Shown: positions 23,628-46,984 of the stretch, piece by piece
Position numbering within the stretch: the stretch's first letter is position 1
How the letters are laid out: every line of letters starts with the position of its first letter
DNA from: a bacterium
Lineage (GTDB): Bacteria > UBA6262 > WVXT01
Length of the DNA: 54,103 nt
NCBI GenBank assembly: GCA_046759165.1
Contig: JBHIBS010000008.1
Coordinates: 1 to 54,103 of the forward strand
Direction: 5' to 3'
Program-made: the position numbers and the translations under genes
Notes under the pieces: generated by a model
The model's database searches: none
The model's input: the letters and a program-made list of their open reading frames with translations, nothing else
Told to the model about the DNA's origin: nothing

Positions 23628-23715
23628 GTCTTCGGCAACCTGACTACCCCGATAACTCGGGACTCTAAGGCTTTGCGTCCCCCTATATTTTAGGGAGTTG
23701 CTTTTATCGAACGAC
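23628..23715 (-). promoter_or_regulatory. GEMM-I riboswitch aptamer with A at the G20-equivalent position
   Basis: UUCGAUAAAAGCAACUCCCUA-AAAUA-UAGGGGGACGCAAAGCC...CAGGUUGCCGAAGAC; promoter TTGTCA-N17-TAATAT at 23763-23735. Confidence 0.8.
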
Positions 23716-44711: not shown

Positions 44712-45000
44712 CTACTTTTCCCTATAATCACACGCCACATCGCCAACCAATCCTTTACCCGCGAGGAGAATTACGGGAATATCTTTAATTTCCTCATTCT
44801 CTTTAATCATCTTCCAGGGAGTAAACCCATCAAGTTTGGCTATCATTACCTCCATAATAATGTGCTTGGGCTTCTCTTTGCCTGCCTTGCTAATGCCTTC
44901 CAATCCCGAAACGACCGTCAATACCTTGTGATTGCGAGCTTGCACTATTGCTGCCGTTGTATCCAGAGCATCAGGGTCATCGTCGATTATAAGTATTTTA
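44712..45000 (-). pseudogene. Degenerate response-regulator receiver domain
   Basis: KILIIDDD...IIMEV (phosphoacceptor Asp replaced by Glu)...IPVILLAG; truncated, no credible start. Confidence 0.55.
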
Positions 45001-45047
45001 GATTTCCTGCTTGTATCTCTTCCTATGGTTTGGTGGAGGCGGCGGGA

Positions 45048-45676
45048 CATATACCCCACTTATTTCTAAGTGGTATGGACTATCTCTTCATCCCCAACAG
45101 GGAGCCTGACGTGTTATAAGAGGCACAAATTTATCGCTGGTTCAATTTCCTTATTTGAGCAACAAGTTCCAATTTTCTTCTTAGCATCTCAGGAGTATAC
45201 TTTCCATTTCTCGGAGTATACACCTTATATTTCCTTGTGATTAACCAAGATTGTTGCTTCTTGACAATAAGGTAATCTTTAATTTCATTGAGAAAGCAAA
45301 TTGCTTTATTATCCCTAATTGACCACGTATAAGACTGAGCATGATGGGCTTTATTCTTACTTTTCGTGGTAATCTTCCCTGCACCAACAACGTTTTTGAC
45401 CCAATCTAAAAGCTGTAAATTATTGTTGGCAATGGATACCTCTGGGGATGGAGTTTCATTCCTATGTTTCCGACTAAGAGTTACGCTACCTTCTCCATCA
45501 ACCAGCCCGGCTATGTATGCTTTCTCAATTTCGCCCAACGATATCACCTCCTATCATTGCAGTCTCTGCAGGGCTTTCGCCCCTCAGGGTTACCCTTTCC
45601 TATATTATCAGGATTAGGGCTTCCCTGATGTAAGCCAGGTTTTGCATCCCGAATTGCTTCGGGAGTCGACCTTTTG
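45048..45676 (-). mobile_element. Group I intron in the tmRNA T-loop
   Basis: P1 with U.G at the splice site, P2 GCAA hairpin, P3 CCUGGC/GUCAGG, P4 CAGGG/CCCUG, GCAGAGACU, GAAGAGAUAGUC, P9 GAAA hairpin, terminal G. Confidence 0.92.
45131..45538 (-). CDS. Single-motif LAGLIDADG homing endonuclease (intron-encoded)
   Basis: YIAGLVDGEGS motif and YL.VKK; AGGAGG RBS favours TTG at 45538 (track start 45547). Confidence 0.9.
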   Translation of the reverse strand: MGEIEKAYIAGLVDGEGSVTLSRKHRNETPSPEVSIANNNLQLLDWVKNVVGAGKITTKSKNKAHHAQSYTWSIRDNKAICFLNEIKDYLIVKKQQSWLITRKYKVYTPRNGKYTPEMLRRKLELVAQIRKLNQR

Positions 45677-46009
45677 ATCGAACCCGCGTCCAGGAATATT
45701 TCAGCAAGACATCTACAGGTTTAGTCTCTGTTTGGAATCTCCTCCGCCTTATTACCCATAGACAGGATTCGAGGCGGAGCAGCCTTTAAATATCATCCTG
45801 ACTCCCAAGGCAAAAGTCAAGACTATCCCATCTCTCTGACACTCATCCCCATCCAATGGGCAAAATGGGGTGAGCGTGTCCGCTTACGCGGCTAATGCTA
45901 ACTCAGCGTCAGCACTTATTTTCTGTTGTCGATTGATTAACGAGCCTTCGACAAACCTCGACCTGCAGTCTCTGCCTCTTCTATCCCTGTCGAAACCTGA
46001 TCGCCCCCT

Positions 46010-46608: not shown

Positions 46609-46649
46609 GACTTTTTCTCCAGGCTAGACTAAAATTATTACAAAGTTAT

Positions 46650-46733
46650 GCCGAAGTGGTGAAATTGGCAAACACGCACGGTCCAGGGCCGTGTGGGCGA
46701 GAGCCCTTGGGGGTTCAAATCCCCCCTTCGGCA
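46650..46733 (+). tRNA. tRNA-Leu(CAG) with atypical C33
   Basis: GCCGAAG...CACGG-TCCAGGG-CCGTG, variable arm, GGTTCAAATCC, CTTCGGCA; promoter TTGACT-N17-TAAAAT at 46607-46635. Confidence 0.9.
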
Positions 46734-46984
46734 AGTAAATTTAAGGAAGCCCTTGATTTTCTTATCTTTTCTTGTAATCCACTAGTTTTGGCCAAACCAA
46801 CTTTCGGCAATAACAGGCTGTCGTCGACTTGCCCAAAAGCATAAAAGCCCACTATTCCTTCCTCTTTGCCAGGCAGAATCGTTATACCCGTTATGAACTG
46901 CCTCACGTAAACTTTCTTCTCCTGTAGAGCGCCTTTCGCTAACACTTCATCGGCATTCCTCAGATACTCCAAAATCCCCAGCAT
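46715..46984 (-). pseudogene. C-terminal fragment of a probable large serine recombinase reading into the tRNA 3' end
   Basis: KK.YVRQFI..I.I pattern; ORF ends LAEGGI* inside the tRNA. Confidence 0.5.

Follow-up and report, generated by a model that had tools for sequence, protein, structure and literature searches.

The Shine-Dalgarno sequence and start codon of a homing-endonuclease gene lie in the P7.2 helix that closes its loop in a tmRNA group I intron

The 54,103-nucleotide stretch of DNA analysed here (the window) carries on its minus strand, at 46008-45031, a tmRNA gene whose T-loop is interrupted by a group I intron (Table 1). The gene matches the Rfam model RF00023 at 153.4 bits, where the gathering score is 47, and joining of the exons restores the tRNA-like domain; the split gene received no call from ARAGORN and was detected by Rfam. 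An RF00023 search of the genome found the interrupted gene to be the sole tmRNA gene above the family cut-off, so splicing matters to the cell. The tmRNA is essential for ribosome rescue. The exon junction is seen directly in the intronless relative L007, in which GGGTTCGAT is followed by TCCCGCC; exon 1 and exon 2, when joined, give the exact T-arm of this relative, and the same exon 2 17-mer ends both intronless and intron-bearing relatives. T-loop introns described in the available text of PMC11915505 are alike in host gene and in carrying endonucleases of the LAGLIDADG family, and the insertion site here, past the sixth T-loop nucleotide, is by our count the main position 7 of that paper.

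Table 1. Features of the interrupted tmRNA gene, its intron and the intron-borne ORF, in coordinates of the window
Feature	Position	Strand	Basis
tmRNA exon 1 (5' end through sixth T-loop nucleotide)	45677..46008	minus	RF00023; end set by intronless L007
Group I intron, 629 nt, in tmRNA T-loop	45048..45676	minus	boundaries from intronless allele and intron extraction
P1, exon UCGAU with internal guide GUCGA, U.G at 5' splice site	45666..45681	minus	read from sequence
P3 5' strand CCUGGC	45634..45639	minus	partner 45110-45105; MFE folds of excised intron and ORF-less homolog
P7 5' strand GACU	45561..45564	minus	partner AGUC 45081-45078; manual assignment guided by Rfam alignment
Outer P7.2 stem, 5' arm AUAGGAGGU, holds Shine-Dalgarno GGAGG 45551-45547	45546..45554	minus	pairing, homologs, fold
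Inner P7.2 stem, 5' arm UAUCGUUGG, holds UUG start 45538-45536	45535..45543	minus	covariation, RNAalifold
LAGLIDADG homing-endonuclease ORF, 135 codons and stop, UUG start	45131..45538	minus	Pfam matches
8-nt direct repeat GAAATTGA, 5' copy	45525..45532	minus	3' copy 45149-45142; deletion junction
Inner P7.2 stem, 3' arm CCAGCGAUA, last three sense codons and first two stop bases	45132..45140	minus	covariation, RNAalifold
Outer P7.2 stem, 3' arm GCCUCUUAU, pyrimidine-rich, ORF 3' UTR	45116..45124	minus	pairing, homologs, fold
P3' GUCAGG	45105..45110	minus	MFE folds
P8 hairpin	45091..45103	minus	fold; compensatory changes, RNAalifold columns 490-492 with 514-516
P7 3' strand AGUC	45078..45081	minus	Rfam alignment, homolog rows
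P9 hairpin, GAAA loop	45056..45073	minus	sequence, Rfam alignment, fold
tmRNA exon 2 (T-stem 3' half, acceptor 3' strand, CCA)	45031..45047	minus	sequence and intronless comparison

In P1, the exon strand occupies 45681-45677 and the guide 45670-45666, with the last exon base, U, facing G, and the terminal base of the intron is G (omega G, 45048). The Rfam model Intron_gpI matches the window at 28.3 bits (E 5e-5) and 19.6 bits, under its gathering score of 50, since the match to the model is split by the ORF; ORF-less homologs score 51.8 (L004, above 50), 47.8 (L005) and 42.8 bits (L006), and the MFE fold of an ORF-less homolog contains P2-P6, P3, P7.2, P8 and P9 (z = -6.47). Extra hairpins, P7.1 and P7.2, between P7 and P3' mark introns of subgroup IA type, labelled 'IA3', to which this intron may belong. 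Among 31 homologs, a separate P7.1 hairpin of 4-7 bp, followed by the ORF-bearing helix, is present in 19; this hairpin has 2 bp in L075, is missing in L047 and is absent in the clade of the window together with L039 (10 of the 31). By our reading, the ORF sits in the second hairpin, P7.2, rather than in P7.1. According to the available text of PMC11915505, the ORF of tmRNA introns that carry a homing-endonuclease gene (HEG; 36 of 883 overall) is placed in the 'P7.1 region' in 19 of the 23 founding HEG-bearing introns.

The ORF product matches the Pfam families PF14528 (30 bits, cut-off 22.5) and PF00961 (29 bits, cut-off 23.1), and its relatives in the PDB include, among others, an rRNA intron endonuclease of the I-Vdi141I type, I-MsoI and the bI3 maturase. 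A scan of genome contigs with the single protein gave one close intron-internal relative (L013), the gene at the other loci lying outside an intron or being degenerate, whereas a scan of viral contigs gave only distant relatives, at most 40% identical among the best 80 of 95. The same endonuclease family also occurs free-standing, just downstream of intron-bearing tmRNA genes, in sister lineages. At 25 such loci, inspected by eye, the free-standing relatives have no conserved pairing between start and stop regions, only the tmRNA terminator hairpin. The T-arm DNA forms a 5+7+5 inverted repeat, which would suit an enzyme with a single motif that cuts the intronless allele as a homodimer.

Several homologous loci have lost the ORF, or part of it. 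The introns of L004-L006 are deletion derivatives whose junction is the direct repeat GAAATTGA, and an RNA-library contig skips 383 nt at the same repeat, its 8 letters fitting either side, so that ORF-less derivatives are known from three related genomes and one RNA library. Furthermore, the ORF is truncated in L075, L043 has a late frameshift, and in L028, L029, L031 and L035 the stop within the helix is lost and the ORF extends into P3'/P8. Such losses could mean that the endonuclease gene is a relic, no longer expressed, with the paired Shine-Dalgarno (SD) sequence left over on the way to loss of the ORF. This explanation is very improbable, because the dN/dS of the ORF (0.03-0.15) indicates purifying selection, the stop is found at the conserved place in 22 of the 28 ORF-bearing rows, and the LAGLIDADG motif region, AGLVDGEG, is kept in all 28. 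As to the RNA itself, in library X19 a contig of joined exon 1 and exon 2 has a depth of 3949.5, compared with 5.4 for an intron contig, which is ORF-less; this is ambiguous as evidence of splicing, since its exon haplotype agrees as well with intronless as with intron-bearing relatives (18/18) and the DNA run X4 also contains the joined, intronless form. Libraries X18 and X20 cover only exon 1 of relatives.

The loop that contains the ORF is closed by P7.2, a helix of 18 bp in two parts. The original prediction had described the outer part, pairing the SD strand 45554-45546 with 45124-45116 over 9 bp with two G.U, and both its sequence and its coordinates are confirmed, as nine antiparallel pairs. 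The strands had also been placed beside P7 and P3', and they are indeed found there, the 5' arm beginning 6 nt past the P7 5' strand (GACU, 45564-45561) and the 3' arm stopping 5 nt short of P3' (GUCAGG, 45110-45105). In a detail to be corrected, the 3' arm, described as lying just after the stop, starts 7 nt past the UAA (45133-45131), and a second helix of 9 bp, the inner stem, had been overlooked. Translation-start signals are thus located on one strand of the helix and translation-end signals on the other. GGAGG with a spacing of 8 nt to the start is kept in most rows, with the variants GGGAGG and GGGGG; SD-like motifs precede 23 of the 36 long ORFs in the window, by a crude count with lenient motifs that is too loose to prove SD use. 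The start codon is UUG in 29 of the 31 rows and CUG in the other two, with AUG in none at that position, and non-AUG starts throughout would be consistent with down-tuned translation.

Conservation of this arrangement is seen in an alignment of 31 homologous P7-to-P7' segments, with protein identity of 54-98%, from which L013 (equal to L002 over the segment) and L042 (equal to L041) had been dropped beforehand and in which L024 and L033, with cut 3' ends, and the degenerate L075 were kept. The 5' strand of P7 does not vary in any of the 29 rows with letters there. Over both stems and P7, 98.9% of 666 cells are paired and seven pairs vary on both sides, and none of 500 shuffles attains any of five measures; with partners slid as a control, 31-57% are paired. 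The covariation check among homologous introns, proposed with the original prediction, came out differently for the two halves of the helix. In the inner stem, six of the nine pairs show compensatory changes on both sides, matched by 0 of 500 shuffles, and the pair that involves the start codon is U-A in 23 rows, U.G in six and C-G in two. The outer stem is paired in 277 of 279 cells, but all its variation is G-C/G.U or A-U/G.U, so that covariation alone does not prove it: the paired fraction is reached by 55 of 500 shuffles and the single both-sided pair by 65 of 500. Nevertheless, the changes are compatible with pairing, as the nine columns of the outer 3' arm include no transversions or gaps, whereas six of the seven columns in the neighbouring internal loop have transversions, and every change in the arm is between C and U where the partner is G, or between G and A where it is U. 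RNAalifold recovers both stems unaided across the ORF, as does single-sequence folding. A quick tree of 27 of the 31 rows (without L004-L006 and L075), with 12 of its 24 forks unresolved, puts independent pair changes at a minimum of 5, 7 and 6 in three of the inner pairs and at a minimum of 9 in one of the outer pairs, counts to which we attach little weight.

A purine-rich SD sequence might find a complementary partner in a pyrimidine-rich stretch by chance, and in the single sequence this probability is not negligible, as a run of at least nine pairs, with G.U allowed, occurs between 40-nt windows at the ends of the ORF in 905 of 5000 mononucleotide shuffles (18%), and the energy of the flank duplex is reached in 32 of 2000. 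It is the comparative evidence that places the stem beyond chance. Accidental complementarity is already disfavoured, and is exceedingly improbable, given that the pairing is retained among homologs of such divergent proteins and that the stem is continuous with the covariation-supported helix and is recovered together with it by RNAalifold. The evidence supports the assignment of the stem to a conserved part of the intron fold that lies between P7 and P3', closes the ORF loop and contains the SD sequence.

The two-part duplex has a calculated energy of -22.8 kcal/mol, and pair probabilities in the full precursor are 0.89-1.0 for the outer stem and 0.74-1.0 for the inner one. Since both the SD sequence and the start codon lie in the 5' strand of the closing helix, the splicing-competent fold would hide both translation signals. 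The original prediction had anticipated this for the ribosome-binding site (RBS), and the predicted equilibrium fold of the precursor agrees with it, the unpaired probability of both elements being 0.00. The corresponding value for the SD sequence is 0.97 in an RNA that ends at 45400. In RNAs that end at 45200 or 45145 it is mostly paired to ORF-internal sequence (mean unpaired probability 0.11), so that, according to these predictions for naked RNA, it may stay free over less than the full 400 nt.

The position of these signals could also reflect structure alone, with P7.2 closing the ORF loop and stabilising the core, no regulation being involved and the endonuclease dose being set in some other way; the SD sequence and the start would then be found in the helix only because insertion into a hairpin loop leaves both ends of an ORF close to the stem. 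In a sister lineage, 29 ORF-less tmRNA introns have P7.2 as a plain hairpin in the same place, and L004-L006 retain both arms unchanged with no ORF left to translate, which suggests that the helix may be kept for structure alone. The element UAGGA, which opens P7.2, is common to ORF-bearing and ORF-less introns, so that part of the SD sequence may be inherited structure, and the restriction of variation in the outer stem to wobble changes points in the same direction. Strong repression of initiation would be expected, however, from a helix of this length and stability over the SD sequence and the start, no matter how it arose. In addition, GGAGG at its spacing is kept in most rows, whereas SD-like pentamers, present in six of the 29 sister-lineage introns, are found in none of their P7.2 5' strands (placement read from folds); by this reading, GGAGG is tied to the ORF-bearing lineage. 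The consistent use of non-AUG starts is likewise not what structure alone would lead one to expect, and we regard this explanation as rather unlikely.

The original prediction had further included a competing local hairpin, AUGAUA/UAUCGU, with GGAGGUGA in its loop, as one state of a built-in switch. Such a hairpin can be formed, as 8 bp of CAAUGAUA/UAUCGUUG with GGAGGUGA displayed in the loop and an energy of -7.9 kcal/mol, but it is not conserved in the 31 homologs. It is predicted in the clade of the window and L039 (10 of 31 rows, -5.5 to -7.7 kcal/mol), and it is the MFE structure of the early nascent RNA, in which the SD sequence is accessible. If the local hairpin and the long-range helix were in equilibrium, they could toggle the RNA between translating and splicing forms. 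Against such toggling, 82% of the hairpin cells are paired, a level reached by 422 of 500 shuffles, with the central pair broken in 16 of the 31 rows and with no compensatory change, and, where a U in its 3' half has become C, the compensating change is found in the long-range partner and not in the local one. Its 5' half is supplanted in 21 of the 31 rows by the P7.1 hairpin (2-7 bp) or by other sequence. Moreover, the long-range helix exceeds the hairpin in stability by 15 kcal/mol, so that the long-range form would prevail at equilibrium. A two-state switch is thus not shown by these data and is quite improbable.

A sequential, kinetic scheme fits the anatomy better than does a two-state switch. 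Transcription reaches the SD strand about 400 nt ahead of its partner, so that one and the same RNA can be translated first and fold and splice afterwards; judging from footprint sizes, it is reasonable to infer that translation and splicing exclude each other at any one moment on any one molecule. The SD sequence and the UUG start are probably hidden in P7.2 of the folded precursor, with translation taking place mainly on nascent RNA, before splicing. Closure of the helix would loop out the ORF of about 400 nt and draw P7 and P3' together. Given the long delay between synthesis of the two strands, loading of ribosomes is most likely limited to nascent RNA and to times when the helix is kept open by a ribosome that is terminating. 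Once the helix is closed, the RNA would be translationally silent and free to splice, and most likely almost no endonuclease would be made from the folded intron. An RNA gene with very high expression would in this way yield endonuclease at a low dose and with little disturbance of tmRNA maturation. Repression, its timing and the benefit to splicing are what we infer from the conserved helix and from the positions of the signals within it.

We can speculate, more tentatively, that P7.2 acts as a co-transcriptional timer combined with a ribosome-held gate, and that a free-standing HEG moved into the P7.2 loop. The endonuclease would then be translatable only for a few seconds, until transcription has passed the 3' strand of the helix, and later only while ribosomes that terminate inside the helix keep the start open; the first closure would be an irreversible commitment to splicing. 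Each transcript of one of the most abundant RNAs of the cell would thereby yield a tiny dose of endonuclease. As for its origin, a free-standing gene downstream of the tmRNA might have entered the P7.2 loop, with the conserved UAGGA junction becoming the SD sequence.

For the genes of intron endonucleases, the available part of PMC3073962 describes sequestration of the RBS, non-AUG starts and splicing defects caused by ribosome occupancy. In the td intron of phage T4, an RNA hairpin sequesters the RBS of I-TevI, and splicing suffers when translation begins early (Gibb and Edgell 2010, via PMC3073962). The likeness lies in the burial of the RBS of an intron endonuclease in RNA structure and in the disturbance of the ribozyme fold by ribosomes on the intron, but the I-TevI hairpin is local, inside the P6 loop (figure legend in PMC3073962), whereas here the partner lies 400 nt downstream, past the stop. 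Unlike in I-TevI, the helix that sequesters the RBS belongs to the structure of the ribozyme, and, since the host tmRNA is non-coding, no ribosomes that translate exons are involved. For I-TevI, sequestration of the RBS is relieved by a late promoter. As in that system, the RBS is paired here in a conserved RNA structure, according to the homolog alignment and the folds. In the RNA phage MS2, an SD sequence pairs with a distant upstream segment, so that only RNA that is not at equilibrium is translated. This is an analogy only, as the kind of RNA is different and the partner in MS2 is upstream instead of downstream. The P7.2 helix also resembles 'core creep', in which the ends of endonuclease ORFs supply nucleotides of intron helices, as do the last codons here, although the examples in the part of PMC3073962 available (Table 1 of that paper) involve coding overlap, with none having a start codon paired to its own stop region. 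In the group II intron Ll.LtrB, the SD sequence of the intron-encoded protein is likewise made inaccessible in the mature ribonucleoprotein or RNA fold, but there the protein LtrA occludes it by binding, whereas in the present group I intron RNA pairing does so (PMC3073962, as far as available). Both RBS sequestration, as in I-TevI, and HEG-bearing tmRNA introns are therefore already known; the text of PMC11915505 at hand has no mention of an RBS, a start codon or a start-stop helix, and the term 'Shine-Dalgarno' occurs in it 0 times.

With the present intron, the RBS sequestration known from mobile introns would come to include a host RNA that is non-coding and a structural helix that is long-range. 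Because tmRNA is essential and its sole gene is interrupted, the intron must splice well and yet make enough endonuclease to spread, and the helix, supported in part by covariation, indicates how one RNA could meet both needs without a protein factor and, in this model, without a separate promoter. With the signals that begin and end translation on opposite strands of one ribozyme helix, the intron may provide a simple system in which to study competition between translation and ribozyme folding. The presence of a free-standing endonuclease beside intron-bearing tmRNA genes bears on the origin of composite mobile introns and, should the reading of P7.2 as a timer and gate entered by such a gene be true, these loci would fall into a natural series along the route to mobile introns termed 'collaborative homing'.

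The match to the Rfam tmRNA family (RF00023, 153.4 bits), the only tmRNA gene above cut-off in this 92% complete genome, lies on the minus strand of the window and stops within the T-loop, where an insert separates it from the remaining part of the gene (see the table). The boundaries of the insert are fixed, because the insert-free tmRNA gene of a related genome (L007, genome G006) equals the two exons of the window joined. The insert bears the hallmarks of a group I intron: as read from the sequence, P1 comprises 5 bp with the guide GUCGA and the terminal exon U opposite G, the final base is G, and the Rfam group I model matches both halves, at 28.3 and 19.6 bits, both short of the gathering score (50) since the ORF splits the model. 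Its ORF-less homologs reach 51.8, 47.8, and 42.8 bits, and one of them folds unaided into P2, P3, P4–P6, P8, and P9 (z = −6.47, 200 shuffles). The ORF, present in one copy in the genome, encodes a LAGLIDADG endonuclease with a single motif; it has Pfam matches above cut-off to both PF14528 and PF00961, and remote relatives in the PDB.

Features of the tmRNA locus, its surroundings, and related loci
Feature	Position	Strand	Remark
tmRNA T-arm 5′ half and six loop nucleotides	end at 45677	minus	sequence reading
Insert in T-loop	45676–45048	minus	629 nt; sequence reading
Remaining T-arm, acceptor 3′ strand, and CCA	45047–45031	minus	sequence reading
Endonuclease ORF	UUG at 45538 to UAA 45133–45131	minus	135 codons; sequence reading
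Outer P7.2 stem	45554–45546 with 45124–45116	minus	GGAGG within 5′ arm
Inner P7.2 stem	45543–45535 with 45140–45132	minus	UAUCGUUGG with CCAGCGAUA
8-nt direct repeat at ORF ends	45532–45525 and 45149–45142	minus	deletion junction of L004–L006
ORF with receiver-domain-like N-terminus (by eye)	44712–45059	minus	begins right after tmRNA gene
tRNA-Leu(CAG)	46649–46734	plus	upstream of tmRNA gene, opposite strand
c-di-GMP-I riboswitch aptamer	40–135	minus	36.7 bits; gathering score 35
c-di-GMP-I riboswitch aptamer	23631–23712	minus	50.5 bits; gathering score 35
Second T-arm-to-CCA copies	L062:849–876; L068:1640–1667; L052:~1188–1215; L061 3′ flank		

The listed GTG of the ORF that follows the tmRNA gene overlaps the 3′ end of the intron, so its true start is probably further downstream.

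The region was matched in 12 of 41 related genomes. The full intron with its ORF is found in L002 and L003, an ORF-less intron of 246–247 nt in L004, L005, and L006 (e.g., L004:1837–2083), and further intronless genes in the more distant relatives L008, L009, L011, and L012. The ORF-less form differs from the ORF-bearing one by a deletion of 382 nt between the copies of the 8-nt direct repeat. Scanning genome contigs with a protein pattern yielded 8 loci. Metagenome contigs were scanned with a six-protein alignment, and among the best 80 of 323 relatives, 26 have the gene within a homologous intron at the same site (protein identity 54–86%). The host is the tmRNA T-loop where the contig permits this to be seen: both T-arm halves are present in 14 of these 26 loci (L042 duplicates L041), and L025, L030, and L043 match the Rfam tmRNA family.

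The original prediction paired the Shine–Dalgarno (SD) region of the endonuclease gene with a strand just after its stop codon. Both 9-mers were located and pair as described, with the 5′ arm 6 nt past the 5′ strand of P7 and the 3′ arm 5 nt ahead of P3′. However, this stem is just the outer part of a more extended helix, in which a 2-nt by 7-nt internal loop is followed by a second 9-bp stem. The 5′ strand of this inner stem includes the UUG start, and its 3′ strand spans the last three sense codons and ends at the second base of the stop. One strand thus comprises the SD and the start; opposite it lie the stop region and the beginning of the 3′ UTR. The duplex energy is −22.8 kcal/mol for the two-part helix, −10.3 for the outer stem alone, and −11.1 for the inner one. 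On the single window sequence the outer stem is not striking, since a run of at least nine pairs (G·U allowed) arises in 905 of 5000 shuffles of 40-nt segments; the flank duplex energy was equalled by 32 of 2000 shuffles.

Conservation of the helix was assessed in an alignment of 31 distinct P7-to-P7′ segments that include the ORF (L013 and L042 were excluded as duplicates). Over both stems and P7, 98.9% of 666 cells are standard pairs, both-sided changes occur in seven pairs, and none of 500 shuffles reached any one of five measures; when the partner is shifted by 1–3 columns, the paired fraction is 31–57%. The weight of the test is carried by the inner stem, with both-sided changes in six of its nine pairs, such as columns 43/456 (C-G 16, U-A 13), 49/450 (G-C 24, A-U 4), and 46/453, at the initial position of the start codon (U-A 23, U·G 6, C-G 2), where C-G corresponds to CUG replacing UUG in L043 and L050. 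In the coding 3′ strand of this stem, the compensations are synonymous (CGA/CGG, CAA/CAG, AAC/AAU) except in three rows, where they abolish the stop. In the outer stem taken alone, 277 of 279 cells are paired, and 43–65 of 500 shuffles reach the observed values because the variation is almost wholly wobble (nearly all G-C/G·U or A-U/G·U). For the outer stem alone, this indicates compatibility rather than proof. Its contiguity with the proven inner stem supports it. The outer 3′ arm shows transitions only (transversions or gaps in 0 of 9 columns), whereas six of seven columns of the adjacent 7-nt internal loop have transversions. With the alignment as sole input, RNAalifold returned both stems as the one long-range helix spanning the ORF. 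A quick, poorly resolved tree of the ORF columns, to which we attach little weight, suggests that the pair changes arose several times.

Four rows (L028, L029, L031, and L035) have lost the stop codon within the inner stem (alignment columns 457–459), in three of them with the base pair preserved (A-U to G-C). Here the coding region has extended into the intron core, continuing into P3′ and P8 for at least about 15 codons.

The helix could also be maintained purely for structure. Both of its arms are retained in L004–L006, ORF-less derivatives with a 13-codon remnant ORF, and 29 tmRNA introns of a sister lineage, likewise without an ORF, form a plain P7.2 hairpin. In a manual reading of their folds, however, the 5′ strand of the sister-lineage hairpins is without GGAGG; the presence of the SD motif thus tracks that of the ORF.

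In 19 of the 31 aligned introns, a separate 4–7-bp hairpin directly follows P7 and precedes the ORF-bearing helix, which places the ORF in the loop of a second hairpin, P7.2. The first hairpin, P7.1, has 2 bp only in L075, is absent in L047, and is missing from ten of the 31 rows, namely L039 and those of the window's own clade; in the window, six nucleotides (45555–45560) replace it. The tmRNA database paper assigns 19 of the 23 founding LAGLIDADG-bearing introns to the 'P7.1 region' and four to a position after P9 (PMC11915505).

A switch had been proposed in which a competing local hairpin would hold the SD in its loop. Such a hairpin is present in the window (8 bp, −7.9 kcal/mol, SD in the loop, start codon in the stem) but is not conserved. 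Across the 31 rows, its 82% of paired cells were equalled by 422 of 500 shuffles, no compensatory changes were found, and the central pair is disrupted in 16 rows; where the U of UAUCG becomes C, the compensation is found in the long-range partner and not in the local one. The hairpin is confined to L039 and the window's clade, where P7.1 is lacking. When the 5′ segment is folded locally, 16 of 31 rows leave the SD wholly unpaired, and in most of the other 15 just a few of its bases lie within small local hairpins. The common feature is therefore an SD accessible before the 3′ strand exists, and not a conserved alternative hairpin. Thus, the original prediction is partly supported: the switch through the competing hairpin is not, while concealment of the ribosome-binding site (RBS) by the splicing fold is well founded. 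In partition-function folding of the window transcript at several 3′ ends, the probability that the SD is unpaired is 0.97 when the transcript ends at 45400 (early nascent), averages 0.11 at 45200 or 45145, where the SD pairs with ORF-internal sequence, and is 0.00 in the full precursor, in which the pairs of both stems have probabilities of 0.74–1.0.

The simplest model would be sequential, with translation before splicing. Ribosomes would load while the ORF is being transcribed; once the last codons and the 3′ arm had emerged and the last ribosome had departed, the helix would close, join P7 and P3′, and allow the RNA to splice. An initiating ribosome would occupy a site within ~20 nt of P7, and one terminating at the ORF stop would extend over the outer 3′ arm as far as P3′, so that, given known footprint sizes, a single molecule could not be translated and adopt the catalytic fold simultaneously. 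A weak hint of splicing comes from contigs in distant RNA libraries: one metatranscriptome includes a contig joining exon 1 to exon 2 at a depth of 3949.5, as well as an ORF-less intron contig with the L004–L006 junction (383 nt skipped) at a depth of 5.4. The exon haplotype of the joined contig fits intron-bearing L004 and L005 and intronless L007 alike (18/18), and the joined form is present also in a DNA run.

Members of the family are also found outside introns, at 38–50% identity, in 30 loci among L052–L100 (e.g., L053:254–1043, L092:756–1599) and in L018. These free-standing genes lie on the same strand as a tmRNA, 80–150 nt beyond its CCA end and terminator hairpin, and the adjacent tmRNA has an ORF-less intron of 258–351 nt at the same T-loop site; a tmRNA 3′-end motif is located upstream in 41 of 53 loci examined. 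A free-standing gene beside an intron-bearing tmRNA corresponds to the arrangement named collaborative homing in phages (PMC3984707), and suggests that the endonuclease gene later moved into P7.2. In a few loci, a second, intronless T-arm-to-CCA copy lies 39–79 nt past the free-standing gene, which is thus bracketed by two tmRNA 3′ ends, in what looks like the footprint of insertion at the T-loop. In named Bacillota records, a relative (40–43% identity) lies a short way downstream of the tmRNA, encoded on the other strand: it adjoins an intronless tmRNA in L014 and L016 (Clostridium sp. MAGs) and an intron-bearing one in L015 and L017 (Fictibacillus), and L019 (Bacillus aerolatus) has only a degenerate fragment.

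The element is of a known kind, as is the principle of hiding the RBS. The tmRNA database paper (PMC11915505) counts 883 intron-form tmRNAs, every one interrupted in the T-loop, with LAGLIDADG genes in 36; PMC3073962 describes, for many intron ORFs, start codons other than AUG, weak RBSs, and sequestration of the RBS within RNA structure, as well as ORF ends that often overlap intron helices, and a splicing defect through ribosome occupancy when the I-TevI hairpin is opened. Among the papers listed in our search, none combined tmRNA, intron, LAGLIDADG, and Shine–Dalgarno, the last term is absent from the tmRNA database paper (PMC11915505), and the literature found on RBS sequestration in homing endonucleases of group I introns included none on tmRNA. 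The architecture, in which the SD and start strand pairs with the gene's own stop-region strand as a ribozyme helix in a non-coding host RNA, was not found in the literature searched, although supplementary alignments may show it. We infer the functional consequences of RBS hiding as follows. The use of weak initiation codons (UUG in 29 of the 31 rows, CUG in the other two), the strength of the helix, the expected high expression of tmRNA, and purifying selection on the ORF (dN/dS 0.03–0.15) point to an endonuclease gene that is used but held low.
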